The notes: generated by a model from the letters alone, not told the origin. 64,000 bases of DNA from Acidimicrobiales bacterium (GCA_050012675.1 JBEKGS010000004.1:481-64480); one strand, 5' to 3'. Numbered from the stretch's first letter, positions 2,340 to 19,863 are shown. Made by a program: numbers and translations.

Positions 2340-5300
2340 GCGAACTCACCGAGGACAAGTGCGCTCCGGACGGGGGGCCGACCCCTCCCCAGCAGCCCGT
2401 CATGCTCGAAGTGGACCTGACGATCAACGGTGACCGGTACCGCCTGACCTGCGAGCCCGGCGACACGTTGTTCACCGTCCTACGCCGCCTGGGGCTGTTC
2501 AGCGTCCGCTTCGGGTCGGGAACCGGCGAGTCCGGCGCCGCAGCCGTGCTGTTAGACGGCAGGCTCGTCTCCGCCGACGTCATGCTCGCTGGCCAGGCTA
2601 GCGGCCACAAGGTGACGACGGTCGAGTCTCTCGACGTCGCGACTGACGAGCTCGACCCTATCCAGCAGGCCTTCGTCGATATCGGGGCCCTGCAGTCCGG
2701 ATACTCGGCGGGCGCGATGGTGCTGGCTGCTAAGGCGCTGATCGATGCCAACCCCGACCCATCCGAGACAGAGATTCGCGACGCGTTGAGCGGGATACTC
2801 GACCGCGAGACGGGCTACGTGAAGGTCGTCGAGGCGATCCGGCGTGCCGCCGCGGTGTGTCGCGGTGAGAAGGTGCCGCCGGTCGAGCCGGTCGTGCTCG
2901 AGCCGCTCACCGGCCCAGGTTCGACGGAGCGACGTGTGCCCTCAGCGGAAGCCCTGCAGGCCCCGCTTGCCATGCCTCACGTCGTCCTGTCAAGCGACGT
3001 CGCCAGCACGGCTGTGGTCGGAAAGCCCGAGCCCAAGGTCGACGCCTTACGTCTCGCCAAGGGACGACCCGTCTTCACCGACGATATCGACCTGCGCCAC
3101 ATGCTGTATGCCAAGGTGCTGCGCAGCCCTCACGCACACGCTCGTATCCTGGCTATAGACGACAGCGAGGCAAGGGCGCTGGCCGGCGTGCACGCCGTGA
3201 TCCACTACGGCAACACGCCACGGGTGAAGTACGCCTCGGGCGGTCAGACCTGGCCGAATCCCCCGCCGTGGGACCAGGTCAGCTTCGACAACAAGGTCCG
3301 CTTCGTGGGCGACCGCGTGGCGGCCGTGGCGGCCGAGACGCCGGGGATCGCCGAAGAGGCCTGCCGGCGCATCAAGGTCACCTACGAGGTCCTCCCAGGT
3401 GTGTTCGACGAGGTCGAGGCGATCACGCCTGGTGCGCCGCTAGTCCACGACGAGACAGACACCGAGGGCATCTACGACGCCGCCCACAACAAGAGCCACC
3501 ACATCGAAGGTCAGACCGTGACCGACGAGGTGCTCGAGGCCGCGTTCGCCAGCGCCAAGCACGTCTTCCAGCAGACCTTCCATGTCCAGCAGCAGCAACA
3601 CGCCAACATCGAGCCTCACATCACCATCGGCTGGCTCGACGACGACGATCGCCTCGTGCTCCGTAGCTCGACGCAGGTTCCCTACCACGTCCGCCGCATG
3701 GTGGCGCCACTGCTCGGCCTTCCGGTCAAGCGCATCCGCGTGATCAAGCCCCGGATCGGGGGCGGCTTCGGGGGCAAGCAGGAGATGCTGATCGAGGACA
3801 TCGTGGGCTACCTCGTGCTCGCCACCCGTCGTCCGGTTCGCCTCGAGCTAACGCGGTCGGAGGAGTTTGCTTCCGCCAGGTGCCGGCATGCCATGACGCT
3901 GACCCTGCGCACGGGTGTCGACGACGACGGCCATCTGGTCGCCCAGGACATGTATGTCGTCTCGAACACCGGCGCCTACGGCACCCATGGTTTCACGGTC
4001 AGCACCGTTGGCGGCATGCACGGGATGTCGATATACAACTGCCCAGCCAAGCGCTTCCGATGCGACGTTGTTTACACGAACCGTCCCGTGTCGGGTGCCT
4101 TCCGCGGCTACGGGGCCCCTCAGAACTTCTTCGCGGTCGAGTCGCAGATGGACGATATCGCGCGCGCTCTTGGCATGGACCCCTACGAGCTGCGACGCAA
4201 GAACTGGGTGCGGGTCGGCGACCCCCTCGACATCGTCCCACGGCTCGGTGAGCGCGGCGATGTCGTCGAGATCCCACAAGAGGAGCTGCCGCACATCATG
4301 AGCTGCGGCCTCCAGGAGTGCGGAGCGCAAGGGACGCGCGCGATCGGCTGGGAACGTCGGAACGACCCGTCCTGGCGACAACCGGCGGACCGCCCGAACA
4401 TCAGGCGCGGCATCGGCATGGGTTCGGCCATCCAGGGCTCCGGGATTCCCTTCGTCGACATGGGGGCGTGCTCGCTCAAGATCAACGACGACGGCTCGTT
4501 CAACCTGCTCGTCGGGGCCACGGACGTGGGCGGGGGATCGGACACCGTGCTCGCCCAGATTGTCGCCGAGGTGCTCGGCGTCGAGCTCAACGACATCATC
4601 GTCTGCTCGTCTGACACCGACATCACTCCTTTCGACGTCGGCGCGTACGCCTCGAGCACGACCTACGTCTCGGGCGGAGCAGCTAAGAAGGCGGCCGAAG
4701 CCGCCCGGGCCCGCATCGTGACCCGCGCCGCGAGGCTGCTCGATCTCGACGATCCCGGTTCGGTCGAGCTGCACGACCGGCGGGCATGGGGTCCCGACGG
4801 GCGCTCGATCTCGCTCGGCGACCTCGCCCTCAACTCGCTGCACACCGAGGATCAGGAGCAGATAATGGGAACAGCGTCGCACTACGGGACGGTCGCGGCG
4901 CCTCCCTTCGCGGTCCAGCTTGCCGAGGTCGAAGTGGACGTCGAGACCGGTCAGGTGACCGTGAAGAAGCTAGTCACTGCCATCGACTGCGGGGTCCCGA
5001 TCAATCCGATCACTGCGAGCGGCCAGGTGGAGGGGGCGATGCTGCAGTCCCTCGGGTACGCGTTGACCGAGGATCTCGTTCTCGACCGTTCGGGCAAGCT
5101 GGTCAATGACCGCTTCGGACCGTACTGGATCTTCCGGGCGGACGACGCCCCAGTGTGCGAGGCGATCCTCGTGCAAACGATGGAGCCGTCGGGCCCGTTC
5201 GGGGCCAAGGCGGTCGGTGAGGTCCCCATGGACGGGATCGCACCGGCAGTGCGCAACGCCGTCCTCAACGCCACAGGAGTGAAGATCAACCAGCTCCCGT

Positions 5301-5626: not shown

Positions 5627-6460
5627 CTACCGCGCCAGCATGAGGATGGCTTCCAATACGCCGCCGCCGATTGCTCGGCTCTTGTCCGAGACGGTGAAGC
5701 AGTGCTCGCGACCGGCGCGTGGGTCCACGTCTCCTACCTTCATCCCGACATGGACCTGGAATTCAGGCCGGATCAGGCCCCGCAACACACCGTCGATCTC
5801 GGCTCGCAACAGGGTCTCGCCGCCGGCGTCCGCGACGCGCAGCACGGGCGTGCCGACCCGGACCAGGTCTCCGATGTCCGCAAGGTTCTCTGCCACACCC
5901 GCAACGGGCGAATGAAGGACCCTCTCGCTGCCTTTTCCCGCGATCTCGCCGGGAACGCCGGTGTTGGGTTCAGCGTGCCCCGTCAGGAAGATTCTGCCCA
6001 GATCATGGCCGCGATTCGTCTCTACTACGGCGTGGGCGTCCACGCCGGCCTCGAATCCCGGCCCGAGAGCCACGACGACCTGGGCCATGTCGATGTTGGT
6101 GCCGAGGTTGCGCTTGGCGATTATCGCGTCAACTAGGGCCAATGGCCTGAGGGCCCCCAGCGCCGAGCATCCCGGGTCTGCCAGCAGAGGCACAGGGCCC
6201 TCCGGTCCCCAGCGCTCCAAGAGTCCCCGCAGTTCGGCGAGCGTTCCCACGCGCATGGAACGCACTCCTTCCACCTGCGCCTCGCCTTCGTACATGGCCT
6301 CGGACAGGCACACGGTGCGCCGGATCGAGCTTGGCCTCGGTTGCTCAAGTGCGGCCACCCGAAACCCGGATCGTACGAGCCGGAGAATTGTGCCGGTAGC
6401 CAGATCCCCGGCCCCCCTCACGACAACCAGCTCTCCATTCACCAAGCCCATACTTTTCAT
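5627..6460 (-). CDS. Selenium-dependent molybdenum hydroxylase system protein, YqeB family (stand-alone C-terminal-type)
   Basis: 'GELVVVRGAGDLATGTILRLVRSGFRVAALEQPRPSSIRRTVCLSEAMYEGEAQVEGV' matches my memory of the EF2563/YqeB-family core ('GAGDLATG...IRRTV.FSEA.Y.G...VEG'). Genomic context: XdhC, YqeC and SelD. Confidence 0.75.
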   Translation of the reverse strand: MKSMGLVNGELVVVRGAGDLATGTILRLVRSGFRVAALEQPRPSSIRRTVCLSEAMYEGEAQVEGVRSMRVGTLAELRGLLERWGPEGPVPLLADPGCSALGALRPLALVDAIIAKRNLGTNIDMAQVVVALGPGFEAGVDAHAVVETNRGHDLGRIFLTGHAEPNTGVPGEIAGKGSERVLHSPVAGVAENLADIGDLVRVGTPVLRVADAGGETLLRAEIDGVLRGLIRPEFQVHVGMKVGDVDPRAGREHCFTVSDKSRAIGGGVLEAILMLAR

Positions 6461-6538: not shown

Positions 6539-7603
6539 TCAGATCACGGCGGCGGCCCGCCGAGCGGCGTGGGCCTGCTTCAAGGTGGCCACGGTCTTGG
6601 AGTTGTGCCGCACCGCGACGATCTCTGCCAAGATCGATACAGCCAGCTCTGGCGGAGTCTCGGCGTCAATATTCATGCCGACCGGGGTGAACAAGGCGTC
6701 TATCCGGGCCGGGTCGAATCCCTCCTGATGCAGTTGTTCGACCATCATCCGCGTCTTCCGGGCACTGCCCATCACTCCGACGTAACGGGACTTCCGCGGC
6801 AGCACAGCCCGGACGCAGGTCAGATCCAAGCCGTGGTTTCTCGTGACGATCACGATGTAGGTCGAAGTGTCTAGGGGCAGCTGCGCGATCACCTGGGTGA
6901 ACTCGCCGTGCATCCTGTCGACCTCAGGGGGGAAACGATCCGGACCGAGGAGTTCGGCCCGGTCGTCCACCACCGTGATCTGGAAGCCGAGCGGCGCTGC
7001 CGCGAAGGCCAGGGCCTGTCCCACGTGACCGGCGCCCAAGATCACTAGTTTCTCCTCGGGCACCAAGGGGTCGTAGAAGACGCCGGCATCGCGATCGAAC
7101 CTGGGTTCGCCGGTGAGGAAGGCACGGGCCGCCACGTCGGCTTTCCAGTCCCGGAAATCACCAGCGATCTGCCTGCCTCCTTCGTCCACCAGGGCGGTGA
7201 CGACTTCTAGGGACTCCTGTCCATCAAGGATCTTCTTGATCGAGAGAACCCGCTCTCCGCGCGCCAGCCGCTCCTGGATCTGGCGGTAGGTGCCGGGCTC
7301 AGTCACGCGCTCGATGAGGACCGTGCTCGTTCCGCCGCATACCCCGCCGGGGTCGAGGATGGTCGCGCCCCGGCTCTCGATGTGCAGCAGGGTCGGCTGG
7401 CCACTCGCGAAGCACTCCCAGCAAGCCGCCAGCGCCCGGGCTTCCGGATGTCCGCCTCCGATGCTGCCGGTCGAGCCGCCATCGGGAGTCACCAGCATCT
7501 TGGAGCCTGCATGGCGTGGGGCCGAGCCTCTGACGTCAAGGATGGTCGCCAGGACGAGGGGCGCCTGGGCTGTGGCGACAGCCTGGAGTAGATCCCCTCT
7601 CAC
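6539..7603 (-). CDS. xdhC: XdhC/CoxI-family molybdenum-cofactor insertion/sulfuration chaperone
   Basis: N-terminal XdhC_CoxI block 'LATILDVRGSAPRHAGSKMLVTPDGGSTGSIGGG'; Rossmann block 'LVILGAGHVGQALAFAA'; C-terminal 'GVMGSARKTRMMVEQL...GMNIDAETPPELAVSILAEIVAV'. GTG start with AGGAGA 5 nt upstream. Confidence 0.85.
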   Translation of the reverse strand: MRGDLLQAVATAQAPLVLATILDVRGSAPRHAGSKMLVTPDGGSTGSIGGGHPEARALAACWECFASGQPTLLHIESRGATILDPGGVCGGTSTVLIERVTEPGTYRQIQERLARGERVLSIKKILDGQESLEVVTALVDEGGRQIAGDFRDWKADVAARAFLTGEPRFDRDAGVFYDPLVPEEKLVILGAGHVGQALAFAAAPLGFQITVVDDRAELLGPDRFPPEVDRMHGEFTQVIAQLPLDTSTYIVIVTRNHGLDLTCVRAVLPRKSRYVGVMGSARKTRMMVEQLHQEGFDPARIDALFTPVGMNIDAETPPELAVSILAEIVAVRHNSKTVATLKQAHAARRAAAVI

Positions 7604-8366
7604 CGTGTCTCCTGGCGCTCGTCGAGCACCGCTGCGGCGGCGTCCTTCCGGAACGACCTCGGGTAGCGGCTACGCCGGCGCGGCTGGTCGGGGCAGGCGT
7701 CGTTGCCTGGTGCCATGACACTTTGCTGTTCGGAGTGTGCGGCATGAAACGAACGCATGAGAACACGATCAAGGCCCCTGCAGCCCGACCGGTGAGAAGC
7801 GTCACTACTGGGAATCATCAGGCCTCAGGTCGATCGGCTGCGTAAGAAGGCTTTAGCCTCATGGGGAAACGCTCGAGGGCGTAGCTTAGGGCGACAAGAC
7901 CGTTGAACAAAGGCGCTTCCGCACAGCTCAGGATAGACATAACGTGCGAGGTCGGGCGATGACGGATCAGAGAGGCGGCGTGAGTGAGTGCAGCCACCGC
8001 GCCGGAAGGCGCTTTGCCGCAGCGGCGTCGTCCCTCCTCTGCCGCCGGCCCGCCACCGGTGGAGAACTGCCAAGCGCCCTCGTAGCGTGAGGCCGGAGGT
8101 GGCGACTCGTCGGAGGTCGATCGCGGCGACGCGAGGCGAAAGTCCGAGCGCGCGCCGCTTCGCCTCGGAAAAGACCCCGGCGGGTCTTGCGGCGTCCGTT
8201 AGCCATAAGTATCGGGCGAAGGGACGGAGCGTCGCCTCTGGTAGCTTGGCAGGGCAAGCGGCGTGTGGAACCCGAGCTCGCCAACCGGCGAGCCGGGCCG
8301 GGGGGCTGCGAACCGGTCGAGGTGCTAGATGTCAGGTCCGCGGTCGTGAACCGCCCGGAGAGCCAC

Positions 8367-9131
8367 ATGAGCATTGGCGATGCCATCCACTTGCTCCTGC
8401 CTCTCTCTGGTGCCGTGGTCTCGATCGTGGGAGCGGGCGGCAAGACGACGGTCTTGTTCGAGTTGGGCGAGAGCCTTGCCAATCGCGGTTCGAACATACT
8501 CCTCACGACTACCACGAACATCTTCGACCCTCGCGTGGAGCCGGATCGGCAGTTCGATCACGTGCTGTTAGAGGCCGGTCTGGCTGAACCTTTCGAAGAG
8601 CCGGGACCGTTCCAAGAGCCGGGCGTAATCCCCCCCTTCCTTGAGCACGGAACTTCTCCTGAGACACGGGGACGGCTTATCGTCCTGGGCTCTCGCGAGG
8701 TGAAAGGTGCGGACAAGCTCCAAGGGATCCATCCCAGTTGGATGGCGAGGCTGAGTCGGGATTGGGCCTACGTGCTTGTGGAAGCAGACGGCGCCAAGGG
8801 CCGGTCCATCAAAGCCCCCGGAGATCATGAACCCGTCGTGCCGCCGTCGACAGGAGCCGTGATCGGCGTTGTCGGCTTGGATTGCCTGGGGCGCCCCATG
8901 GACGGGGCTACCGTCCACCGCCCGGAGCGCTTCCAGGCGGTGACCGGCCTGGCCGCCGGACCCCTGGAGACAGATCTGACCGCTGTCTGCTCGCACGAGG
9001 GATCAAATATTCCGGGACACGTCCTGATGCTCGCATTCGCTTCCGGCTTTGGGACAGGAGATTCGGCCGTGGGGCCAGGCATCGCCGAAGAGCCGCCCGG
9101 ATCCATGCTGAGGTTCGGGGCCTGCCGATGA
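8367..9131 (+). CDS. yqeC: Selenium-dependent hydroxylase accessory protein YqeC (P-loop protein)
   Basis: 'VVSIVGAGGKTTVLFELGESLANRGSNILLTTTTNIFDP' and 'YVLVEADGAKGRSIKAPGDHEPVVP' are YqeC-family signatures. I chose the ATG at 8367 inside track ORF 8187..9131. The stop overlaps the next start (ATGA 9128-9131). Confidence 0.8.
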   Translation: MSIGDAIHLLLPLSGAVVSIVGAGGKTTVLFELGESLANRGSNILLTTTTNIFDPRVEPDRQFDHVLLEAGLAEPFEEPGPFQEPGVIPPFLEHGTSPETRGRLIVLGSREVKGADKLQGIHPSWMARLSRDWAYVLVEADGAKGRSIKAPGDHEPVVPPSTGAVIGVVGLDCLGRPMDGATVHRPERFQAVTGLAAGPLETDLTAVCSHEGSNIPGHVLMLAFASGFGTGDSAVGPGIAEEPPGSMLRFGACR

Positions 9132-10261
9132 TCTACCTCGACAACGCGGCGACCAGCCATCCCAAGGCTCCGGGCGTGGCAGAGGCCATGGTGCGCTTCA
9201 TGACCGACACCGGAGCGAGCCCCGGCAGGGGCACCCATCCCCAGGCCCAGGCGGCGGACCGCCTACTTTTCGCGGTGCGGGAGCGCTGCGCCGCGTTCCT
9301 GGGGGTACCCGAACCCGAACGCCTCGTGTTCACCAAGAACGCCACGGAAGCCCTCAACCTGGTGCTCATGGGCCAGGTGCCTGCCGGAGGCTCGGTAATT
9401 CTGAGCTCGTTGGAGCACAACGCGGTCATGCGTCCTTTGCACTACCTGGAAGCCCACCGGGGCGTGCGGCTATCTCAGATCCCTTTCGACGCCTGTGGCC
9501 GCCCGGATCCCGAGTCCCTCCGCGTGGCGACGGCACGGCCGGCGGACCTCTTCGTCTTGACTGCCGCGAGCAACGTGACCGGCTGCATCACGCCCGTCGC
9601 AGAAGTCTCACGCCTCTGTAGACGGGCTGCGATCCCTCTTTGCGTCGACGCCAGCCAGGCTGTGGGCCATGTGACGCTGCCCATGGATGGAGTCAGCTTC
9701 CTGTGCTTCTCCGGCCACAAGGGGATGCTCGGGCCCGTTGGCACCGGAGGGCTGTACCTCGCGCCCGGATTTCATCCTGAGCCTCTCCTGCGCGGAGGGA
9801 CGGGGAGCCAATCCGAAAGCGAAGAGCAGCCCGACTTCCTGCCCGATCGTTACGAGGCTGGAACTCTCAACCTCGTAGGACTGGCGGGTCTGCTTGCGGC
9901 CCTGGACTTCCTCGAGGCCCGAGGTCCCGCCAGTATCCGCGAGCGGGAGGCGTCTTTGTGCAAGCGACTGCTCGGCGGCATGCTGGATCTTCCCGGCGTC
10001 TCTTCGCCAGGGCCCGAGCCCGGCGCAGCTCGCGTGCCCGTCGTTTCACTGTCGGTTGATGGCCAAGATTTGGGGGAGATTGGCCTTGAATTCAACCGGC
10101 GGGACATAGCAGTGCGCGTGGGTCTGCATTGTGCGGCCGCCGCCCATCGCAGCATCGGCACCTTCGGGGCGGGCGGAACCCTGCGGTTCTCACCGGGCTT
10201 CGCTACCAGTGAGGAAGAGATCGACGCGGCCATCGAGACCTTGGAGGCGATCCTTAGATGA
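9128..10261 (+). CDS. Class-V aminotransferase, cysteine desulfurase / selenocysteine lyase-like (EF2568-type member of selenium-hydroxylase loci)
   Basis: 'MIYLDNAATSHPKAPGV'; PLP-lysine block 'FSGHKGMLGPVGTGGLY'; active-site Cys block 'RVGLHCAAAAHRSIG'. Coupled on both sides by ATGA overlaps. Confidence 0.85.
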   Translation: MIYLDNAATSHPKAPGVAEAMVRFMTDTGASPGRGTHPQAQAADRLLFAVRERCAAFLGVPEPERLVFTKNATEALNLVLMGQVPAGGSVILSSLEHNAVMRPLHYLEAHRGVRLSQIPFDACGRPDPESLRVATARPADLFVLTAASNVTGCITPVAEVSRLCRRAAIPLCVDASQAVGHVTLPMDGVSFLCFSGHKGMLGPVGTGGLYLAPGFHPEPLLRGGTGSQSESEEQPDFLPDRYEAGTLNLVGLAGLLAALDFLEARGPASIREREASLCKRLLGGMLDLPGVSSPGPEPGAARVPVVSLSVDGQDLGEIGLEFNRRDIAVRVGLHCAAAAHRSIGTFGAGGTLRFSPGFATSEEEIDAAIETLEAILR

Positions 10262-11298
10262 GCGATTCTCCGGCGTTGACGACCTACACTCGCTTCTCCG
10301 GCTGCGGCGCGAAGCTCGGCCCAGGGGTGCTCGACGAGGCGCTGTGCGGACTTGAACAGCCCGCCTACCCGCAGCTTCTGGCTGGGTTCTCCAGCTTCGA
10401 GGACGCGGGGCTTTTCCTTTTGGACGACGGTCTCGCACTGGTGCAGACCGTGGACTTCTTCCCACCCATTGTGGACGACCCGTACATGTTCGGGCGCATC
10501 GCCGCCGCCAATGCTCTCTCGGACGTGTACGCCATGGGTGCACGTCCCCTCACAGCCCTCTGCCTCGTCTGTTTTCCCCTCAAGAGTCTGGGCCTGGACA
10601 GCTTGAAAGCCATGATGGAAGGTGGCCTGGACGCTCTGACCGAGGCTGGTTGCGCCTTGCTAGGGGGGCACAGCGTCGAGGATGCGGAACCGAAACTGGG
10701 CTACGCCGTGACCGGGCTGGTCGATCCCGAAAGAGCCTGGCGCAACAACACGCTTCGACCCGGAGCTGCCTTGATCCTCACCAAGCCTCTCGGCACAGGA
10801 CTCCTGAACATGGCGCTGAGAGCTGAGTGCGCGAGCGAGGAAGCTCTGAACCTCGCTCAGACGTCGATGGCCCTGCTCAACAAGCGAGCAGCGGAGATTC
10901 TGGCGGAGGGCGACGTCTGGGCATGCACAGATGTCACGGGCTTCGGCTTGGCCGGTCACGCCGCCGAGATGGTGGACGGCGCGCCTTGCGGGCTGAAGAT
11001 CCGGTACGCCGATCTGCCGCTGATCCCCGGTGTGGAGGAATGGGCCGCCATGGGACTCGTCCCCGAGGGCACCTTCCGGAACAAGCAGGGCCGCATACGC
11101 TGCATCGAGAACGTCGATGCCCTCGATCCGGTCATGCTCGACATCCTCTTCGACCCCCAGACTTCCGGAGGCCTGCTGGCTGCTGTTCCCGTCGATCGGG
11201 CGACGCAGCTGCAGAAGGACTTGAGAGCCGAGGGAGTGTCCGCAGCCCTGATCGGCGAGACTGGTGGGTTGCCGGGCACCGTGGAGATCCTCGTCTGA
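10258..11298 (+). CDS. selD: Selenide, water dikinase (selenophosphate synthetase), Cys-type
   Basis: N-terminal 'LTTYTRFSGCGAKLGPGVLDEAL' (active-site Cys-Gly-Ala-Lys; Cys, not an in-frame TGA). AIR-synthase-like blocks: 'DDPYMFGRIAAANALSDVYAMGARPL', 'LLGGHSVEDAEPKLGYAVTG', 'ACTDVTGFGLAGHAAEM'. Confidence 0.9.
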   Translation: MSDSPALTTYTRFSGCGAKLGPGVLDEALCGLEQPAYPQLLAGFSSFEDAGLFLLDDGLALVQTVDFFPPIVDDPYMFGRIAAANALSDVYAMGARPLTALCLVCFPLKSLGLDSLKAMMEGGLDALTEAGCALLGGHSVEDAEPKLGYAVTGLVDPERAWRNNTLRPGAALILTKPLGTGLLNMALRAECASEEALNLAQTSMALLNKRAAEILAEGDVWACTDVTGFGLAGHAAEMVDGAPCGLKIRYADLPLIPGVEEWAAMGLVPEGTFRNKQGRIRCIENVDALDPVMLDILFDPQTSGGLLAAVPVDRATQLQKDLRAEGVSAALIGETGGLPGTVEILV

Positions 11299-11570
11299 TG
11301 ATGGTTTTGGCGACTTTCCTGTCCACACACGCGGCTCTTCGAGCTGAACAGGAACTGACGGGGGAGTTATCCGTGGAGCTGATCCCCGTGCCTCGCCAAA
11401 TTCGCAGCGACTGTGGATTTGGTCTCCTTGTTGGCCCGCTGGACCCTCCCGGGGCTGGCCGCGCCGCGGAGATCCTCAAGGGTAAGGGCGCCACAGGCCT
11501 CTGGCGCGTCTTCGAACTGGATTCACCGACCTCGCGGCGCAAGGAGAAACGCTATGAGCTCATCCCGTAG
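11298..11570 (+). CDS. DUF3343-family small protein (putative Se/S carrier-like)
   Basis: 'MMVLATFLSTHAALRAEQEL...ELIPVPRQIRSDCGFGLLV' resembles the DUF3343 pattern (beta-alpha start and 'P.P..I...CG..I'). The ATG overlaps the selD stop (TGATG). The family commonly neighbours selD/yedF. Confidence 0.6.
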   Translation: MMVLATFLSTHAALRAEQELTGELSVELIPVPRQIRSDCGFGLLVGPLDPPGAGRAAEILKGKGATGLWRVFELDSPTSRRKEKRYELIP

Positions 11571-12180
11571 GGTCCTAGATGCTCGGGACCTCGCTTGCCC
11601 GCAGCCCGTGATTCTGACCCGCAAGGCCCTTGCCGAGGGCGGTTTCAGTGAGCTGGAGGTGATCGTGAACACCATCTCCGCAAGAGAGAACGTCGCTCGC
11701 TTCGCCGGCCATGCGGGCTGCACCATCGGCGGCATCGAAGAGTCCGGCGAGGAGACGCGGATCGTGATCCAGCCGGCCGCGGCCAACTGGTCCGACTCGA
11801 CCTCAACGGAATCCATCACCGACGCCACGGTGCCCCTCGTGGAACCCGGCATCCAGACCGTCTTCCTCTCCAGCCGGACCATCGGGAGAGGCGATGACGA
11901 ACTAGGCGCCCTGCTCATGCGGGCCTTCCTCTACACCCTTAGCGAGTCCGAAACTGTCCCTCAACGGGTGCTGCTCATGAACAGCGGAGTAACGCTGGCG
12001 GCCGAAGCCTCAGAGCATCTCGAGAACTTGCGGCGTCTTGCCGATCTTGGTGTCGAGATCTACGCCTGTGGCGCCTGTCTCGAGTTCTACAAGCTCACGG
12101 ATCAGCTGGCCGTGGGCCAAGTCTCGAACATGCAGGAGATCACTGAGTTTCTGCTCCAAGGCAAAGCCCTCTGTCTGTAG
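11554..12180 (+). CDS. yedF: Selenium metabolism protein YedF (TusA/SirA-like N-domain with CPxP motif plus DsrE-like C-domain)
   Basis: 'RVLDARDLACPQPVILTRKAL' is the TusA-type CPxP motif. C-terminal 'VFLSSRTIGRGDDELGALLMRAFLYTL...VLLMNSGVTL...LGVEIYACGACL' is DsrE/YedF-like. The ATG at 11554 overlaps the end of the DUF3343 gene by 17 nt. Confidence 0.75.
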   Translation: MSSSRRVLDARDLACPQPVILTRKALAEGGFSELEVIVNTISARENVARFAGHAGCTIGGIEESGEETRIVIQPAAANWSDSTSTESITDATVPLVEPGIQTVFLSSRTIGRGDDELGALLMRAFLYTLSESETVPQRVLLMNSGVTLAAEASEHLENLRRLADLGVEIYACGACLEFYKLTDQLAVGQVSNMQEITEFLLQGKALCL

Positions 12181-12606
12181 AGGCATAGACCTGAAGACGC
12201 GCCTCACCAATGAAGCGGCCAGGTCCCAGATCGTCTCGCGTGTCGTACGTGGGAAAGGCCCTTTCGACATGCTGCAGGTCTACGCGCCCGTAATGCCGGG
12301 AGCGCTGACTCCCAGGGGCACGCCGACCGAGGGTCCGAGAGTATTGGTTGGCACTCAGGACGTGCTTGAGACCTGAAGACGGCGAAGCCGCCGAGCGGAT
12401 CGAAACACCTACTGTGCCCGCCAACTAGCGAACTGGGATTCGACTGGGTGTCGGATGGGCGAACGCGTACTCACCGATCTCGAGGGTCGCTTGTGCGAAT
12501 CCCAGGCGTAACTCAGCGCGAGAACGAAGCGTCGACTTCAACGGGGTCGGTTCCAGCCGGCGACCCGCTCGAGCCGGACCCGGTTCGACGTAGCAGACTG
12601 GAGACC

Positions 12607-15081
12607 ATGGCTATCACCGCGGTCGACCCCTCAACTGGAGCGGGGCGCACATCTGCGGCGTCAGTTCCGGACGGTGGGGAGAGCGCCCATCTGCCTTTGC
12701 TGAAGGTGCGGGGCCTTTCCATGGCCTACGGCGACCTCCAGGTCCTGAGCGACGTCGACTTCGAGGTGGCGACCGGCGCGCTGGTCGCGCTGGCGGGCGA
12801 GAACGGTGCCGGCAAATCGACCCTTGTTCGTTGTATAGCCGGGGACACCATCCCCGATGCCGGGGAGGTGGCCCTAGACGGGGTGCGGGTCCGCTCCAAT
12901 GCCGCGGCCGCCTCCGCCGGACTGGCCGTGGTGTGGCAGGACGCTGCTCTGTGCGACAACCTGGACGTGGCCAGCAACCTGTTCCTGGGCCGCGAGCGGG
13001 GCCGGTGGTTCACCGCCGACGCCAAGAACACTCTCGCCACCAAGGCCATCCTCGCTTCGTACGGGATAAAGCTGGACAGCGGCCGCCGGGTTCGCTCGCT
13101 GTCCGCCGGCCAGCGCCAGTTGGTCGCCGTGGTCCGGGCCATCCAGGCGCGACCGCGGTTGCTGGTGCTGGACGAGCCCACGGCGTCGCTCGGCGTGCAG
13201 GAGGCGCGCCAGGTCGAAGAGCTCATAATGAAATTGAACGCCGAGGGCACCACCATCCTGTTGGTGTCCCATGATGTCGACCAGGTCTTTCACCTGGCTG
13301 ACCGCATCCTCGTACTCCACGGGGGGCGCATTGTCGCGGACCTGTCCCCCTCGCAGACCCACCCCGAAGACGTCGTGGCCATCATGTCGGGTCACACCCC
13401 CGACGCCAGCGCCCGCCGCCAGTTCAACCGTCTGCAGACCCTGGTCGACCAGCTCGCCTCGGCTACGCCCAACTCGACCCTGCCGTTGGTCCTGTCGGCG
13501 CTGGCTTCGGTGCTCAGCATCGAACAGCTCTGCCTCCACCTCTCCGAGGAACGCAGCCTGCGCCTGGTGGCCAGCGCCGGCCTGCCACCCCCGCTCGTGC
13601 GGGCCTGGGCGTCCGTGCCGATGGGCGCAGAGGGTGGCCCGATGGGCATGGTCGCCGAGAACAAGCGGGTTGTGGTCGTGGAGGACATCGACAGGAGTGA
13701 CTCCTGGGAGCGCTTCGCAGCTCTGGGGCGAGGCGCCGGCATTCGCAGCAGCTGGTCGGTGCCCCTGATTGGCGCGAGCGGACTTATCGGGGTGATAACC
13801 GGGTGCCAGCCGTTCGTGGGGCGGCCGCAGCGTGACCAGATGGACCTCGTGTCGCTGTACGCGGGCTACGCCGCCGGCGCCATCGAGCGTGACCGCCTGT
13901 TCGGCGAGGTGACGGCGCGCAACCGCGTGCTCGAGACCATCCGCGAGGTGCTAGAGACGCTGGCGGGTCCCGAACAAGTGTCCAAGGGCCTGGTCCTGGC
14001 CCTGCAATCTCTGCAGCGGGGGCTGCGCGCCACGGAGATCGAGCTGTGGTCGCGCGTTTCGGCCGGCCTTCCCCGCTGCACGGCCTGCGTCACTGCCGAC
14101 AACCTGGGGTACTGGGAACCGCCGCGGCGCGACGCCGCCGACGCCATACGCGCCTTTTCCGGCCCGGCACCCGTCTACAGCCCCCGTATCCTGCGCCCCG
14201 GGGCGACGGGTCAGGTGGTGGCCACCGCCTTTGACGTCCCGGGCGGCCGGGCTGCGCTCATTGCCCGATGGGAGGCTCCATTGCCCGACGATGCCCTCGC
14301 CCTGCTGGCCGACGGCGCCCACTCGGTGCGGTTGGCCCTGGAACGGGACGAGGCCGAACAGGCTCACCAGCAGACGGCGGCCTTGCGCCGGTCGAACCGG
14401 CTGCAGCGCGATTTCCTTTCCCGTCTGAGCCACGAGCTGCGCACGCCGCTCACGGCCATCCGCGGCTACGCCAGCACCCTGCTGGCGCCGGACGTGACCT
14501 GGGACGACGAGTCCAAGCTGCGTTTTTTGAGCCGCATCGCGAGCGAGTCGGCCCGCCTAGGCAGGCTGGTGGGCGACCTGCTCGACTTTTCGGCCATAGA
14601 GGCCGGACTGCTGCGCCTGCAGCCGGACTGGTGCGACCTCCACTTGGTGCTCGAAGCGGCCGTCTCATGCCTACCGCCCGGCCCGTCCCAAGCCGTCACC
14701 ATCGAGTGCCCACCGTCGATCGGCCCCGTCTGGGCTGACCATGACCGCCTCGAGCAGGTATTCGTAAACCTGCTGGACAATGCCGTGCGCCACAACGACA
14801 GCGACATCTGCATCAGGGTGACGGTATCCCCGGGCGGCAATGAGACGGTGGCGGTCCGGGTGGCCGACAACGGCCGCGGCCTGCCTCCGGAGCTGCGCGC
14901 CCGCCTGTTGGACTCTCAGGGGCACGGGGCCATCAGCGACGACGGCGCCGGGCTCGGCCTGTCGATCGCCCGCGGCATCGTGCGGGCGCACGGCGGTCAC
15001 CTAGGCCTGGAGAGGTCGGAACAAGGGACATGTTTCCTCATCGTGCTCCCCGTCGAGGGCCCCGGAGGATACCTCGCATGA
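12607..15081 (+). CDS. Soluble hybrid protein: ABC-transporter nucleotide-binding domain :: GAF x2 :: HisKA :: HATPase_c histidine kinase
   Basis: NBD motifs: 'GENGAGKST', 'VVWQD', 'LSAGQRQ', 'LLVLDEPTASL', 'LVSHD'. GAF-like segments: '...RLVASAGLPPPLV...VVVVEDIDRSD...SSWSVPLIGASGLIGVITG...'. H-box: 'FLSRLSHELRTPLTAIRGYAS'. N/G boxes: 'NLLDNAVRHN', 'VADNGRGLP', 'GAGLGLSIARGIVRAHGG'. No hydrophobic TM segment. The ATG at 12607 (GGAG 5 nt upstream) is preferred; the track start is 12448. Confidence 0.85.
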   Translation: MAITAVDPSTGAGRTSAASVPDGGESAHLPLLKVRGLSMAYGDLQVLSDVDFEVATGALVALAGENGAGKSTLVRCIAGDTIPDAGEVALDGVRVRSNAAAASAGLAVVWQDAALCDNLDVASNLFLGRERGRWFTADAKNTLATKAILASYGIKLDSGRRVRSLSAGQRQLVAVVRAIQARPRLLVLDEPTASLGVQEARQVEELIMKLNAEGTTILLVSHDVDQVFHLADRILVLHGGRIVADLSPSQTHPEDVVAIMSGHTPDASARRQFNRLQTLVDQLASATPNSTLPLVLSALASVLSIEQLCLHLSEERSLRLVASAGLPPPLVRAWASVPMGAEGGPMGMVAENKRVVVVEDIDRSDSWERFAALGRGAGIRSSWSVPLIGASGLIGVITGCQPFVGRPQRDQMDLVSLYAGYAAGAIERDRLFGEVTARNRVLETIREVLETLAGPEQVSKGLVLALQSLQRGLRATEIELWSRVSAGLPRCTACVTADNLGYWEPPRRDAADAIRAFSGPAPVYSPRILRPGATGQVVATAFDVPGGRAALIARWEAPLPDDALALLADGAHSVRLALERDEAEQAHQQTAALRRSNRLQRDFLSRLSHELRTPLTAIRGYASTLLAPDVTWDDESKLRFLSRIASESARLGRLVGDLLDFSAIEAGLLRLQPDWCDLHLVLEAAVSCLPPGPSQAVTIECPPSIGPVWADHDRLEQVFVNLLDNAVRHNDSDICIRVTVSPGGNETVAVRVADNGRGLPPELRARLLDSQGHGAISDDGAGLGLSIARGIVRAHGGHLGLERSEQGTCFLIVLPVEGPGGYLA

Positions 15082-15085
15082 AGCC

Positions 15086-15790
15086 ATGACTTCGACTACA
15101 AGACGCACCAAGGCTCTGCTGGTGGAGGACGACCCCAATATCGTCGATCTGATCCGTAGCAACCTCATCGTGCGTGGCTTCGACACCTGCGTCTCGCCCG
15201 ATGGGTCGCGCGCCCTGCAGATGCTCGAGACCGAGGCGCCCGACATCGTCCTGCTCGACTTGATGCTGCCCGATGCTGACGGCTTCGAGCTGTGCCGGCA
15301 GATGCGCGAGCGTTCGGGTGTGGGCATCATCGTCGTGTCCGCCCGGGGCGGCCAGCACGACAAGGTGGCCGCCTTGAACTTTGGCGCCGACGACTACTTG
15401 ACCAAGCCCTTCAGTATCGAGGAGCTGCTGGCCAGAATCACCGCCACCCTGCGGCGCACCCGTCCCGCCGAGCCGGTCGATGCGTCGCCGTTGTGCATCG
15501 AGGTCGGCGACCTCGTAGTCGACTTGGAGAAGCGCCTGGTTACACGGGGTGGCGAAGTCGTGCACTTGACCCCGACCGAATTCTCCCTGCTGCGTGAGCT
15601 CGCCGTCGATCGGGGCAAGCTGCTCAGTCACGCCGAGCTCTTGCGGCGGGTCTGGGGGCCGGGCTACGCCACCGAGACGGAGTACGTGCGCGTCTATGTG
15701 CGCCGCCTGCGGGCAAAACTGGAAAAAGGTGGTGGTCCTCCGGTGATCATCACCCAGCCCCGCGCCGGGTACCGGTTCGTGCCGGGATAA
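15086..15790 (+). CDS. OmpR/KdpE-type response regulator (receiver plus winged-helix)
   Basis: 'ALLVEDDPNIVDLI...PDIVLLDLMLPDADGFELC...GADDYLTKPFSIEELLARI' and C-terminal 'LTPTEFSLLRELA...VRVYVRRLRAKLE...GYRF'. Starts 4 nt after the kinase stop. Confidence 0.9.
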   Translation: MTSTTRRTKALLVEDDPNIVDLIRSNLIVRGFDTCVSPDGSRALQMLETEAPDIVLLDLMLPDADGFELCRQMRERSGVGIIVVSARGGQHDKVAALNFGADDYLTKPFSIEELLARITATLRRTRPAEPVDASPLCIEVGDLVVDLEKRLVTRGGEVVHLTPTEFSLLRELAVDRGKLLSHAELLRRVWGPGYATETEYVRVYVRRLRAKLEKGGGPPVIITQPRAGYRFVPG

Positions 15791-16044: not shown

Positions 16045-17295
16045 ATGAAAATGTCACACAAGGGACGGGCGGTCGGCGCCGCGACGGTCACCCTGGCCGT
16101 GTTGCTCGGGGCCGCGGCCTTCGGCATCCAGCCCGCCTCGGCCCATGGTATGGGCGTCGCGTCCCAGAGCGCGGGCATCACGGCCACCAGCTTCAATCGC
16201 AACTTCAGCGCTATGTCGCTGCTCAAGGCCGTCGCGGCCAAGGGCACCGGTGGCGTCACGGCTATCCTTCCTGACACGGTCTCCTCGACCCGCTACGTCG
16301 AGTTCGACACGCCGTTCCTCATGGAAGCCATGGAGAAGGCCGGTTTGCCACCCACCGACACCTACGTCGAGGACGCCGATGGCAGCGACGCCACCGAGCT
16401 GTCGATGGACCAGGCGGCCGTCACCGCCGGTGACAAGGTCGTCATCATGGACCCGTTGGACTCAGGGGTCGGGGCCAAGATCGAGTCGTACAACGCCGCC
16501 CACGGTGTGGCGACCGTCGACTACGACCGCCTGACCCTTGGCGGCCAGCGCAAGTACTACGTCAGCTTCAACAACGAATACGTCGGCACGCTGCTCGGTG
16601 ATGGCCTCGTCAGCTGCATCTCGACCTGGAAGGTCGCCAAGCCGACTGTTCTGGTCATGCACGGCGCGCCCACTGACAACAACGCCACGTTGTTCGCCGA
16701 CGGTTACGACACCGTCCTCGCCCCGTACTTCAAGAGTGGCAAGTGGACCCTGGTTGGCAAGCTGGCCGCCATGGGAGGTCAGGGCGAAGTGCCCGCTGGC
16801 ACCTGGACGCCGAGCGTTGCCCTCACCGAGTTCGAGGGTGAGTTCACCGCGAACCCAAGCATCAATGCCGTGCTCATGCCCAATGACGAGAACGGCGCCC
16901 CGATCATCCACTGGCTGATCACTGCCAAGGGTCTCAAGCCGCGCACCATTCCTTTCACCGGCCAGGACGCGACCTTGACGGGTCTCGGCAACGTGCTCAA
17001 CGGGTACCAGTGCGGAACGGTGTACAAGCCGATCTACGAGGAGGCGCAAGCAGCAGTGGCCATCGCGCTGTACCTCCGTGCCGGCATGGCCCCGCCGGCC
17101 GCCCTGGCCAACGGCAAGACGCTGGACTCCGTAGAGCACAAGCAAGTCGACTCTGTGCTCCTCACGCCCGAGTGGGTGACCAGCAAGAACATGAAGTCGA
17201 CGGTCATCGCCGACCAGTTCGTGCCTCCGTCCAGCCTGTGCTCGTCGCCGTACTCGACCGTAGCGGCCTGCAAGGCAGCGGGCATCACGCCCTAG
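16045..17295 (+). CDS. Sugar ABC transporter substrate-binding protein (periplasmic-binding-protein type I, XylF/ChvE-like), secreted
   Basis: Signal peptide 'MKMSHKGRAVGAATVTLAVLLGAAAFGIQPASA'. PBP-I blocks: 'DKVVIMDPLDSGVGAKIE', 'VATVDYDRLTLGG..YYVSFNNEYVGTL', 'INAVLMPNDENGAPII', 'FTGQDATLTGLGNVLNGYQCGTVYKP'. RBS AAGGGAGAG upstream. Confidence 0.85.
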   Translation: MKMSHKGRAVGAATVTLAVLLGAAAFGIQPASAHGMGVASQSAGITATSFNRNFSAMSLLKAVAAKGTGGVTAILPDTVSSTRYVEFDTPFLMEAMEKAGLPPTDTYVEDADGSDATELSMDQAAVTAGDKVVIMDPLDSGVGAKIESYNAAHGVATVDYDRLTLGGQRKYYVSFNNEYVGTLLGDGLVSCISTWKVAKPTVLVMHGAPTDNNATLFADGYDTVLAPYFKSGKWTLVGKLAAMGGQGEVPAGTWTPSVALTEFEGEFTANPSINAVLMPNDENGAPIIHWLITAKGLKPRTIPFTGQDATLTGLGNVLNGYQCGTVYKPIYEEAQAAVAIALYLRAGMAPPAALANGKTLDSVEHKQVDSVLLTPEWVTSKNMKSTVIADQFVPPSSLCSSPYSTVAACKAAGITP

Positions 17296-17376: not shown

Positions 17377-17506
17377 AGCGACCGTTCTACTTTCCGGGCA
17401 AACGGTCCTCGTTGCGAGGAGCGGCTGTCTCGCTCCTGGGTCGCCGCTGGCCGAGACGGGCGAGCCTGTGGCGAGGCGAGGTGCCGCGAGGAGGACAGAA
17501 ATCGGT

Positions 17507-18352
17507 ATGGCTGTTTCGATGCAAGAGGCTGGCCTCGGGGCTGGGGCCGAAGGGCTGTTGCCGCGTGGGCGGCCCCTTCTGGAATTGCGGGGCGTCCAGA
17601 AGAGCTTCGGCCCTGTCCGGGCCCTGGCCGGAGTCGACATCGTGGTGCCCGCCGGAGAGGTCACCGCGCTGTGCGGAGACAACGGCGCTGGCAAGAGCGT
17701 GACCATCAAGATCATTGCGGGCATCCACCCCGCCGACGGAGGGCAGATCCTTTGGCGCGGGCACCCGGTCTCCATCCGCACCCCCAAGGACTCCGCCGCT
17801 CTCGGCATCGCCACCGTGTACCAGGATCTCGCCTTATGCGACAACCTCGACATCGTCCAGAACATGTTCCTCGGTCGTGAGCCGACCAAGCTCGCTGTCC
17901 TGGATGAGGCGCCAATGGAATTAGCGGCCCGCAAGACTCTGGCCGACTTGCACGTGACGACGGTGCGTTCGATCCGCCAGCCCGTTTCGTCCCTGTCAGG
18001 GGGACAGCGCCAGTCCGTCGCGGTCGCCCGCGCTGTCCTGTGGAACTCGCAGCTCATGATCCTCGACGAACCGACCGCCGCCCTCGGGGTGGCTCAGACG
18101 GCGATGGTGCTCTCTCTCGTGAAGCGCCTGGCCCAGCAGGGCTACGCCGTGATCATCGTGTCCCACAATCTGAACGACCTGTTCGAGGTCGCCGACAACA
18201 TCGCCGTCCTGCGCCTGGGCCAGATGGTCGCTCAGGCCCCGGTTTCGCAGCTTGACCGCCAGAGCGTGGTCGAGCTGATGACCTCCGGCACGGTGGGAGG
18301 AAAGCCGTTCGTCGCAGCGCCGGCGGCGGGGCCTGGGGGGTCTCAGCCATAG
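17507..18352 (+). CDS. Sugar ABC transporter ATP-binding protein, single-cassette (FrcA-like), 281 aa
   Basis: 'LLELRGVQKSFGPVRALAGVDIVVPAGEVTALCGDNGAGKSV', 'TVYQD', 'LSGGQRQSVAVARA', 'LMILDEPTAALG', 'IIVSHNL'. ATG at 17507 with GAGGAGGA upstream. Confidence 0.9.
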   Translation: MAVSMQEAGLGAGAEGLLPRGRPLLELRGVQKSFGPVRALAGVDIVVPAGEVTALCGDNGAGKSVTIKIIAGIHPADGGQILWRGHPVSIRTPKDSAALGIATVYQDLALCDNLDIVQNMFLGREPTKLAVLDEAPMELAARKTLADLHVTTVRSIRQPVSSLSGGQRQSVAVARAVLWNSQLMILDEPTAALGVAQTAMVLSLVKRLAQQGYAVIIVSHNLNDLFEVADNIAVLRLGQMVAQAPVSQLDRQSVVELMTSGTVGGKPFVAAPAAGPGGSQP

Positions 18353-18540: not shown

Positions 18541-19863
18541 ATGACTCCTCCCGGCTCGGGCGCGCCCGAGTTCGAAATCGAGCTCGAAAGAGAGGAGGGG
18601 GAGGAGGAGGTGCCGACGGAATCGGTCATCGTCGCGGCGCCCGAGGTAGTCGCGACCACCCTCGGCGAGTACGTGAGTGCCTGGTGGCGCAAGGCCCGCT
18701 CCGGCGACAGCGGCGTCCTTCCGGTTGTCGTAGCGCTGGTCTTGATAGTCGTCGTCTTCCAGATCCTCCGGCACAAGTTCCTCTCCGCCGGCAATCTCGT
18801 CGACCTGTTCAACCAAATGGTCGTTTTCGCCCTCTTCGCCATGGCCGAGGTCTTTGTCCTGCTGCTCGGCGAGATCGACTTGTCGGTCGTCTACAACGCC
18901 GGCATCGGTGCCGGCCTCATGGCCGCTTTGGTGGCGCCGCCTTACAACCTGCCTTGGTGGCTGTGCATCGTGATCGGCGTGGGCACATGTACCTTGATCG
19001 GCCTCGTCCTGGGCACACTCATCACGCGGCTACGGCTACCGGCGTTCATCGTCACGCTCGCCGCCTTCTTGGGCCTTGAGGGCGTGATGCTGTGGATGTT
19101 CGACCGCTTCAGCGTCGCCGTCGGTGGAGTGATCGAGGTTTCGAACCCGACACTCACCAACCTCGTGGCTGGCAACATCTCCGTGTTGGTCAGTTGGGTG
19201 GTCATGGCCGTACTGGTGCTGGCTTTCGGCGTGTACAGCGTGGTCCGCGACACGCGCCGCCGCGCCTCCGGGCTGGTTACCCCACCCCTGGGCTTCACGC
19301 TGCTCAAGTCGGCTGCCGTGGCCGGAGCGGGCGTGGTCGTGGTAGTTGTTTGCAGCTTCAACCGGGGCACGACGACATTCGTAGCGCGAGGCGTCCCCTG
19401 GTCGATACCGATCTTGCTGGCCATCTTCGCAGGGGCCACCCTGCTGCTGTCGCGCACTCGCTTTGGCCGTTATCTATACGCCATCGGCGGCAACACCGAG
19501 GCTGCCCGGCGCGCCGGTATCAACGTCACCCGGATCCGGACCATCGCCTTCGGGTTGACGGGGATGATGGCCGGCTTCGCAGGGATGATGTACCTGTCGT
19601 TGCTGGGGTCGATCGCCACCGACATCGACCCGAGCTACATGTTGTTCGCCGTCGCCGCCGCCGTCATCGGGGGCACCAGCCTCTACGGCGGCCGAGGCAA
19701 AGCGCTGCACGGCATCCTTGGTGGACTAGTCATCGCCACGGTCTACAACGGCATCTTCCTCATGGGATTCGGGGCGGATGTGGAGTACATGATCGTTGCC
19801 GTAGTGCTCCTGGCCGCCATTGCGGTGGACTCTTTGACCCGCGGTGGGCAGAGGGCGCGCTAA
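18541..19863 (+). CDS. Sugar ABC transporter permease (XylH/RbsC-type, CUT2)
   Basis: About 10 hydrophobic segments. Conserved C-terminal block: 'RFGRYLYAIGGNTEAARRAGINV...AVIGGTSLYGGRGKALHGILGGLVIATVYNG'. Acidic, disordered N-terminal tail. Confidence 0.85.
   Translation: MTPPGSGAPEFEIELEREEGEEEVPTESVIVAAPEVVATTLGEYVSAWWRKARSGDSGVLPVVVALVLIVVVFQILRHKFLSAGNLVDLFNQMVVFALFAMAEVFVLLLGEIDLSVVYNAGIGAGLMAALVAPPYNLPWWLCIVIGVGTCTLIGLVLGTLITRLRLPAFIVTLAAFLGLEGVMLWMFDRFSVAVGGVIEVSNPTLTNLVAGNISVLVSWVVMAVLVLAFGVYSVVRDTRRRASGLVTPPLGFTLLKSAAVAGAGVVVVVVCSFNRGTTTFVARGVPWSIPILLAIFAGATLLLSRTRFGRYLYAIGGNTEAARRAGINVTRIRTIAFGLTGMMAGFAGMMYLSLLGSIATDIDPSYMLFAVAAAVIGGTSLYGGRGKALHGILGGLVIATVYNGIFLMGFGADVEYMIVAVVLLAAIAVDSLTRGGQRAR

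Follow-up and report, generated by a model that had tools for sequence, protein, structure and literature searches.

Loss of all iron-sulfur ligands in the ferredoxin-like module of a probable selenium-dependent molybdenum hydroxylase from an Acidimicrobiales bacterium

The textbook design of the xanthine oxidase (XO) family of molybdenum (Mo) hydroxylases is an invariant chain of redox centers, running from the Mo site through the iron-sulfur (FeS) clusters FeS I and FeS II to flavin adenine dinucleotide (FAD). Here we analyze a 64,000-nucleotide (nt) stretch of DNA from an Acidimicrobiales bacterium (GCA_050012675.1 JBEKGS010000004.1:481-64480; hereinafter the window), which codes for a Mo-pterin subunit whose N-terminal FeS-like module has lost the cysteines (Cys) at all eight cluster-ligating positions. 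The closest described system is the XdhD-YgfM pair of Escherichia coli (b2881/b2880; TIGR03313/TIGR03312), in which a FeS-like module is likewise fused to the Mo subunit and an overlapping upstream gene codes for a CoxM-like FAD subunit. Purified XdhD-YgfM is a reductase converting urate to 2,8-dioxopurine in a manner dependent on reduced nicotinamide adenine dinucleotide (NADH); it was assayed at 10 uM enzyme and 1 mM substrates with kinetics unreported, affinity-purified XdhD co-purified with a roughly 30-kDa partner, the complex was modelled on the xanthine dehydrogenase (XDH) of R. capsulatus, and E606 of XdhD was put forward as the residue that orients urate when C6 is dehydroxylated (PMC12507026). 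A commentary quotes an interface predicted template-modelling score (ipTM) of 0.94 for the AlphaFold 3 heterodimer. XdhD of E. coli K-12 is itself Cys-less at all eight ligand columns (D, A, D, S / S, N / S, D), and its first 180 residues are entirely free of Cys; the same columns are Cys-less in 120 of the 120 best XdhD relatives, 113 of which display exactly DADS/SNSD. These Cys-less relatives carry the NCBI name 'Mo/Fe-S-binding subunit'. The terms '2Fe-2S' and 'cysteine' are absent from the main text of PMC12507026, whose supplement mentions iron-sulfur for YgfK only, and full-text literature searches, with subscription-only reviews outside their scope, recovered no statement that XdhD/YgfN lacks the FeS cysteines.

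Three further systems provide points of comparison. The aldehyde oxidoreductase (MOP) of Desulfovibrio gigas and D. desulfuricans (1sij/1vlb, 1dgj) is the best full-length match covering the module, both in sequence and in fold, and, like the window protein, it carries its 2x[2Fe-2S]-type module at the N-terminus of the chain that holds the Mo domains; however, MOP binds both clusters and lacks a FAD subunit, whereas in the window a FAD subunit is present and the cluster ligands are missing. The best-scoring solved Mo subunit is the alpha subunit of 4-hydroxybenzoyl-CoA reductase from Thauera aromatica (1rm6, E=1.5e-103), a reductive dehydroxylase of the XO family with the reaction direction that has been proposed for XdhD-type enzymes. 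Its FeS subunit, unlike the window module, is separate and canonical, and its FAD subunit has an extra [4Fe-4S] cluster, i.e. more redox centers. Lastly, the selenium (Se)-dependent Mo hydroxylases, such as the nicotinate dehydrogenase of Eubacterium barkeri (3hrd) and the clostridial Se-XDH (TIGR03311), share the yqeB, yqeC and selD signature with the window, but nicotinate dehydrogenase, the closest solved example, has a separate small FeS subunit (3hrd_D), and a TIGR03311-type protein encoded beside one orthologue of the window gene (in locus L009) keeps all eight Cys.

In HMMER searches against PDB sequences, residues 24-180 of the window Mo subunit align with the FeS region of the aldehyde oxidoreductases from Desulfovibrio, and both halves of the module are homologous to stand-alone FeS subunits (8uem_C, 4e-28; 3hrd_D, 7e-28). 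A Pfam search recovers the Fer2_2 (PF01799) domain at residues 95-169 (67.6 bits versus a cut-off of 30.3) and no Fer2 (PF00111) domain at E<=0.01. Foldseek matches of an AlphaFold2 (AF2) single-chain model are best for 1sij and 1dgj, both FeS-Mo aldehyde oxidoreductases, over the full length. The module retains both domains of the 2x[2Fe-2S] fold. The ligand columns were set by HMMER alignment to the D. gigas and D. desulfuricans enzymes (1sij/1dgj), and also by MAFFT and hmmalign with a canonical eight-Cys hydroxylase from elsewhere in the window as the anchor. All eight columns are occupied by residues other than Cys (S61/S66/A69/D81/S121/S124/D156/E158; Table 1), and the concurrence of the three independent alignments rules out misalignment as the cause. 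The only Cys in residues 1-225 are C9, C39 and C175. As its ligands are missing, the module is predicted to be unable to bind either [2Fe-2S] cluster. An earlier note on this DNA, made by reading the sequence, had claimed the loss of all eight ligands for 2405-2860, which corresponds to residues 24-175. That claim is borne out: the motifs it quoted are correct, the three Cys it had placed off the ligand positions are indeed so placed, and no alignment puts a Cys at a ligand column. The second Mo hydroxylase of the window, which it had proposed as a canonical control, has a module at 43925-44410 that holds all eight ligand Cys.

To establish the spread of this condition, we collected the 120 best homologues of the Mo subunit, with 69-96% identity, from a collection of 5.8 billion proteins. 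Cys is absent at all eight columns in 120/120 of them, and the residues found instead are close to invariant (Table 1). A scan of one genome per species yielded 57 related loci, among them a 96% match to the window in the metagenome-assembled genome of an Acidimicrobiaceae from a bog. The module was recovered in 55 of the 57, and all the orthologues therein show the pattern S[T/S][A/G/S][D/E][S/G][S/A/N]DE. These loci belong to Acidimicrobiia, Actinomycetes (Jatrophihabitans), Ilumatobacteraceae, Ferrithrix and Chloroflexota (Caldilineales, Chloroflexia), to which the protein homologue matches add Nocardioides. When the window gene is compared with its four closest orthologues, the ratio of nonsynonymous to synonymous substitution rates (dN/dS, Nei-Gojobori) comes to 0.12-0.22 in the module versus 0.09-0.12 in the Mo domains; the medians over 1120 pairs are 0.26 for the module, 0.22 for the Mo domains and 0.56 for the linker (residues 176-225). 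The values for the module are close to those of the Mo domains, and it is therefore held by purifying selection nearly as strongly as the catalytic part. Thus, the Cys-less module is confirmed as a real, conserved and selected trait of an entire clade, rather than a peculiarity of the window gene.

These data also bear on the view that the protein is a non-catalytic or decaying paralogue, a pseudogene or the product of an assembly error. Such a view might draw on the missing Pfam match for Fer2 and on the relaxed constraint on the partner FAD subunit. Against this, the open reading frame (ORF) of 1005 codons is intact, with a GC content at third codon positions (GC3) of 0.85, the dN/dS of the Mo subunit is about 0.1-0.2, the trait is conserved in 55/57 loci and, across independent assemblies, in at least 120 protein clusters, the active site shows no damage, and maturation genes adjoin. 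We hence consider decay of any kind extremely improbable; conservation and dN/dS together rule out a pseudogene or a sequencing error, and the close orthologues, far from being canonical, are uniformly Cys-less.

The catalytic domains are readily detected (PF01315, 94 bits; PF02738, 267 bits; PF20256, 234 bits), and the motifs GGGFGGK, FRGYGAPQ and AVGEVP are present. In an alignment that took in E. coli XdhD, E. coli XdhA and outgroups, the active-site residues Q482, R590, F478 and the catalytic E962 can be aligned, and the window clade conserves them. A further glutamate, E639, is part of an 'LGE' loop that XdhD also has; it aligns with E606 of XdhD, a residue missing from XdhA, and is invariant in the clade. 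We infer from these residues that catalysis at the Se/Mo center is likely to be intact.

The FAD subunit is encoded immediately upstream, its stop codon overlapping the start of the Mo subunit in an ATGA at 2336-2339, an arrangement indicative of translational coupling. It matches Pfam FAD_binding_5 (PF00941, E=5.5e-20), aligns lengthwise to CoxM-type flavoproteins (e.g. 8uem_B) and shows 32.6% identity to E. coli YgfM; its best NCBIfam match is TIGR03312, at 78.2 bits versus a cut-off of 241.5. The GGGTRL and TIGG motifs are present, and among 55 orthologues the GGT, TxGG and RGSxEYR motifs are at least 90% conserved, in keeping with the claim of the earlier note that the Mo motifs and the coupled FAD subunit are intact. 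As the FAD subunit has only two Cys, it should be without a cluster of its own. It adjoins the Cys-less Mo gene in 54/57 loci and evolves several-fold faster than its partner (dN/dS about 0.40-0.47 versus about 0.1-0.2), with identities among most orthologues of 35-56% versus 60-76% for the Mo subunit. The first 22 kb, within which the locus lies, contain no small ORF resembling a ferredoxin, and neither a second FAD subunit nor a stand-alone FeS subunit was found anywhere in the 64 kb.

Comparison with E. coli XdhD reveals further likenesses in the linkage to yqeB/yqeC, the 'LGE' loop and the placement of orthologues of the window gene with SsnA and a hydantoinase. Nevertheless, the two differ: identity over the full length is 34.5%, the window protein attains 648.6 bits on TIGR03313 versus a cut-off of 1101.9 and is no equivalog member, the replacement residues differ at 7/8 columns (STAD/SSDE in the window clade versus DADS/SNSD), and XdhD has Q557 where the window protein has R590. 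The linker of the window protein also exceeds its XdhD counterpart in length, and C39 and H91 are invariants specific to the window clade. Separately, we observed a protein (P0277; 1215 residues, E. coli, 43 member sequences) that unites YgfM and XdhD in one chain (PF00941 and XdhD domains); it may be a frameshift or fusion allele or a gene-calling artefact.

Relatives sought among 1.84 billion 50%-identity representatives speak to the number of times the clusters were lost. The closest of them (P0121, 54% identity) retains the full set of eight Cys, and a YgfM-like gene overlaps it upstream. Another (P0124, 943 residues) is in a half-way state, with the FeS II ligands lost, those of FeS I kept (DGDG-CCCC) and the Mo motifs kept, and two more (P0145 and P0210) are Cys-less and XdhD-like. 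In a neighbor-joining tree of the Mo domains (729 columns), the window clade is recovered in 100/100 replicates with P0121 as its sister in 83/100, while XdhD and P0145 (100/100) are placed elsewhere; the deeper nodes are weak. In the module, the window protein is 51% identical to P0121 versus 36% to XdhD. When a tree is built from the module without its ligand columns, the two Cys-less clades group together in 49-52% of replicates. Leaving out the columns up to 5 residues from a ligand as well lowers this to 20%, a drop to be expected if the clades are drawn together by convergent relaxation around the emptied sites. Changes outside the ligand columns that are common to both clades are limited to K58R, G98S, G127A and E149D. 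Given that the closest outgroup keeps all eight Cys, and that the replacements differ at most positions, the cluster loss in the window clade was probably independent of that in XdhD, though the trees disagree on the number of losses. The window clade is thus probably a new, independent Cys-less lineage of the XdhD/YgfM kind, tied to the selenium-cofactor system. A protein showing the opposite decay was also encountered: P0125 (977 residues, likewise a 50%-identity representative) keeps the eight FeS Cys and has lost the Mo active-site motifs, with SGSAGGR replacing GGGFGGK, Cys replacing Arg, and Thr replacing the catalytic Glu.

The near-invariance of the replacements could alternatively mean that the former cluster sites bind some other cofactor or metal via Ser/Thr/Asp/Glu, which relays electrons or regulates the enzyme. 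S61, D156 and E158 are found in 120/120 homologues, each site has at least one carboxylate in both Cys-less clades, and C39 and H91 are clade-specific invariants. However, the replacement sets differ between the clades, there is no convergent gain of aromatic residues, His or Cys, E. coli XdhD has V at the position of C39 in its Cys-free module, and we know of no all-oxygen-ligated redox relay in this family. On balance, a substitute cofactor appears improbable. A wire of aromatic or His residues supporting electron hopping was considered separately and rejected, for no such residues have been gained in both Cys-less clades.

Beyond the hydroxylase genes, the locus codes for an apparatus for selenium-cofactor maturation, as the earlier note had recognized: YqeB, YqeC, SelD and YedF each exceed the curated NCBIfam cut-off (Table 1). 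The combination of yqeB, yqeC and selD, along with yedF and a selenocysteine (Sec)-lyase-like gene, is the signature of labile-selenium Mo hydroxylases (Haft & Self 2008, PMC2276186). The class-V aminotransferase of the locus scores 357.9 bits on TIGR01977, below the cut-off of 377, and 288.7 bits on SclA. The true start of YqeC is probably near 8415 (tblastn match 8415-9095), and the YedF-type protein displays both Pfam TusA and DsrE domains. The XdhC-family factor and YqeB are separate genes in the same frame, whereas E. coli has a single 541-residue YqeB fusion, whose tblastn match covers both ORFs. A Sec codon or fusion at the intervening TGA (6539-6541) was ruled out; the presence of a second in-frame TGA before the ATG indicates two genes. 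There was no Rfam match to a riboswitch or other RNA in the window. With this gene content, the enzyme is most likely selenium-dependent. Across the 57 loci, yqeB/xdhC/yqeC lie within 10 kb of the Cys-less gene in 17-20, and linkage of selD/yedF is confined to the closest relatives (5-6/57). The earlier note had asked whether the Cys-less state is clade-wide and invariably linked to yqeB/yqeC/selD: the first holds and the second does not.

The neighborhoods of the orthologues point to purine metabolism. Around one with 76% identity (L009), the cluster mirrors the reductive uricolysis cluster of E. coli: alongside the FAD subunit, the Cys-less Mo subunit and an eight-Cys Se-XDH of the TIGR03311 type, it codes for two PALP enzymes, a SsnA-like protein (399 bits versus a cut-off of 444), a D-hydantoinase (473 bits versus 393), an adenine deaminase, MoaA, a NCS1 nucleobase transporter and a protein resembling 8-oxoguanine deaminase. 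SsnA/GuaD-like genes occur in 28/57 loci and HyuA-like genes in 11/57. In four loci (L007, L009, L031, L057), the TIGR03311-type Se-XDH gene lies about 100-150 nt 3' of the Cys-less gene on the same strand. This Se-XDH (e.g. L009:13043-15697) has the canonical Cys and adjoins without a FAD gene of its own, suggesting that the operon comprises two Mo subunits and one FAD subunit. On the basis of the E639/E606 loop and the purine clusters around the orthologues, our best inference is that the substrate would be a purine ring, probably of the urate type.

Taking these strands together, we propose that the window enzyme is probably a XdhD/YgfM-type, selenium-dependent hydroxylase/dehydroxylase of purines (urate-type), in which the FeS module would serve as a cluster-free scaffold. 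The fold, the interfaces and the active site have all been conserved. The module might persist as the piece that keeps the FAD subunit attached to the Mo subunit and abuts the pterin, with carboxylate and hydroxyl side chains (S/T/A/D, S/S/D/E) filling the former cluster cavities. Of the three possibilities raised in the earlier note, a module turned structural is supported by the purifying selection and the near-invariant replacements, and a non-redox paralogue is disfavored by the intact catalytic Glu/Arg/Gln, the adjoining Mo-cofactor and Se maturation genes and the purine clusters around orthologues. The remaining one, a different electron path, may hold and has been sharpened by the Cys-less XdhD-YgfM, reportedly active with NADH (PMC12507026).

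Several observations weigh against this proposal. The window proteins fall below the equivalog cut-offs of both TIGR03313 and TIGR03312, and the fast evolution of the FAD subunit could signal a changed or waning role. Queries with the E. coli proteins found none of ssnA, ygfK, hyuA, ygeW/X/Y and yqeA in the window, so that the purine/urate assignment rests on the orthologues and one active-site loop; moreover, R590 in place of Q557 implies that specificity may differ from that of XdhD. The AF2 model of the Mo subunit is only moderate in confidence (predicted local distance difference test, pLDDT, 67.5; predicted template-modelling score, pTM, 0.70), and is least confident, with pLDDT <50, at the former cluster loops (residues 55-69, 121-123 and 155-160); it cannot decide among the electron routes considered below. 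Finally, the NADH-driven activity of XdhD-YgfM implies some route from FAD to Mo, and a pure scaffold would leave that activity unexplained.

In the solved members of the family (bovine XDH and carbon monoxide dehydrogenase), the chain spans roughly 15 A from Mo to FeS I, 12 A from FeS I to FeS II and 8 A from FeS II to FAD. The limit for catalytically useful tunnelling, due to Page and Dutton, is reportedly roughly 14 A. From the chain distances, the gap between flavin and pterin would exceed 20 A, past this limit. With the canonical wire from FAD through FeS II and FeS I to Mo predicted to be missing, redox exchange between FAD and Mo would have to be slow and long-range, or gated by domain movement, or else FAD would stand outside steady-state turnover. 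The NADH activity of the E. coli enzyme would fit slow or conformationally gated transfer, by analogy.

The last of these routes has a distinct form, in which XdhD-type enzymes, the window clade included, would be redox-neutral transhydroxylases: both half-reactions would take place at the Se/Mo site, where hydroxylating one purine position would re-reduce the Mo that dehydroxylates another, making the wire dispensable. Examples would be the C8 hydroxylation of xanthine coupled to the C6 dehydroxylation of urate, or the conversion of xanthine and urate to urate and 2,8-dioxopurine. The FAD subunit would then only prime or re-poise Mo, as a slow redox-poising or structural accessory. This would explain the loss of clusters in two clades, probably more than once, with the FAD subunit kept but relaxed, and both the relaxed FAD subunit and the probably repeated loss fit it. 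Furthermore, the net conversion of xanthine to 2,8-dioxopurine in the E. coli pathway is an isomerization, a Se-dependent XDH gene lies directly downstream in the four related loci mentioned above, and the E. coli assay, with 10 uM enzyme and no kinetics, is compatible with slow NADH priming. Counting against it, the only precedent to our knowledge is pyrogallol transhydroxylase, which belongs to a different Mo family. Moreover, a delta-xdhA strain of E. coli left xanthine unconsumed, but in a glucose medium in which urate degradation is repressed (PMC12507026). We regard a transhydroxylase as an unlikely alternative to a cluster-free scaffold.

About equally unlikely is a hetero-complex or a separate redox protein that supplies the missing centers, with either the second, canonical FeS-Mo hydroxylase of the window (43661-46444) or a ferredoxin or flavodoxin docking near the pterin. 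No FAD or small subunit was found near this second hydroxylase, and the window has one canonical FeS-Mo gene and one FAD subunit. Canonical FeS-Mo genes without a FAD gene of their own directly follow the Cys-less gene in four loci (L007, L009, L031, L057), about 13 loci have one within 10 kb, and a ferredoxin-reductase-like gene is present at 20467-21738. However, this linkage is inconsistent, with about 44/57 loci having no second FeS domain within 10 kb; the first 22 kb are devoid of a ferredoxin-like ORF; E. coli XdhD co-purified only with the roughly 30-kDa protein; and the Cys-less module already fills the position that an FeS module would take in the complex. In four loci (L011, L017, L020, L044), an orthologue of the second hydroxylase itself (73-80% identity in the module) lies upstream of the Cys-less gene at a distance of about 9.5 kb. 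As a side observation, its 5' end overlaps an opposite-strand ORF of 968 residues (41164-44070).

Table 1. Features of the window, with former ligand positions of the Mo-pterin subunit and the conservation of each column among the 120 homologues
Feature	Coordinates	Strand	Remarks
FAD-binding subunit, YgfM/CoxM-like, 274 aa	1515..2339	+	probable start GTG 1515
Mo-pterin subunit, 1005 aa	2336..5353	+	N-terminal FeS-like module fused; XdhD-type architecture
FeS-like module, domain 1 (plant-ferredoxin-like), residues 24-94	2405..2617	+	former FeS II ligands S61, S66, A69, D81
FeS-like module, domain 2 (Fer2_2 helical domain), residues 95-175	2618..2860	+	former FeS I ligands S121, S124, D156, E158
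Ligand C1, residue S61	2516-2518		S61 in 120/120
Ligand C2, residue S66	2531-2533		T66 (S66 in window protein) in 118/120
Ligand C3, residue A69	2540-2542		A69 in 112/120
Ligand C4, residue D81	2576-2578		D81 in 114/120
Ligand C5, residue S121	2696-2698		S121 in 118/120
Ligand C6, residue S124	2705-2707		S124 in 119/120
Ligand C7, residue D156	2801-2803		D156 in 120/120
Ligand C8, residue E158	2807-2809		E158 in 120/120
Linker, residues 176-225	2861..3010	+	poorly conserved, joins module to Mo domains
Catalytic part: a/b hammerhead residues 243-354, MoCoBD_1 387-623, MoCoBD_2 668-939	3062..5152	+	Pfam
YqeB, selenium-dependent Mo-cofactor biosynthesis	5627..6460	-	TIGR03309 329 bits, cut-off 220
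XdhC-family Mo-cofactor insertion/maturation factor	6539..7603	-	Pfam XdhC_CoxI and XdhC_C
YqeC, selenium cofactor biosynthesis	8187..9131	+	TIGR03172 139 bits, cut-off 73; Pfam YqeC
Class-V aminotransferase, cysteine desulfurase/selenocysteine-lyase-like	9128..10261	+	Pfam Aminotran_5
SelD, selenophosphate synthetase	10258..11298	+	TIGR00476 357.8 bits, cut-off 125
YedF-type selenium metabolism protein (TusA and DsrE-like)	11413..12180	+	TIGR03527 187.8 bits, cut-off 110; start uncertain
Second Mo hydroxylase, FeS-Mo fusion	43661-46444	+	true start probably near 43868

Further along the window, at 12448-15790, an ORF of 877 residues combines an ABC-transporter ATPase, a GAF domain and a HisKA/HATPase_c histidine kinase in one chain. 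Such a fusion of an ABC ATPase with a sensor kinase is an unusual architecture, which is also seen in a 92% relative (L043). It is followed 3' by an OmpR-type response regulator (15086-15790 within the same range) and then by genes for ABC transporter parts: the binding protein at 16045-17295, the ATPase at 17468-18352 and the permease at 18541-19863. The ferredoxin-reductase-like flavoprotein considered above (Pyr_redox_2 and Reductase_C; minus strand) and a radical-SAM protein (25647-26873, minus strand) are situated 8-14 kb downstream of the selenium locus, and neither has an established link to the hydroxylase.

In conclusion, a widespread clade from Acidimicrobiia, Actinomycetes and Chloroflexota has deleted the wire of the XO family at the level of its ligands, a strongly conserved state in which the FAD subunit and the Mo site are left intact. 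The anomaly is a general one, being shared with the long-known XdhD family of E. coli. It bears both on the reductive route, described only recently, by which gut bacteria degrade uric acid and on the automated annotation of Fe-S proteins. The mechanistic question it poses is directly testable, as the E. coli enzyme can already be purified. If confirmed biochemically, it would point to an unprecedented long-range or gated transfer between FAD and Mo, to wire-free chemistry, or to a hitherto unrecognized partner.

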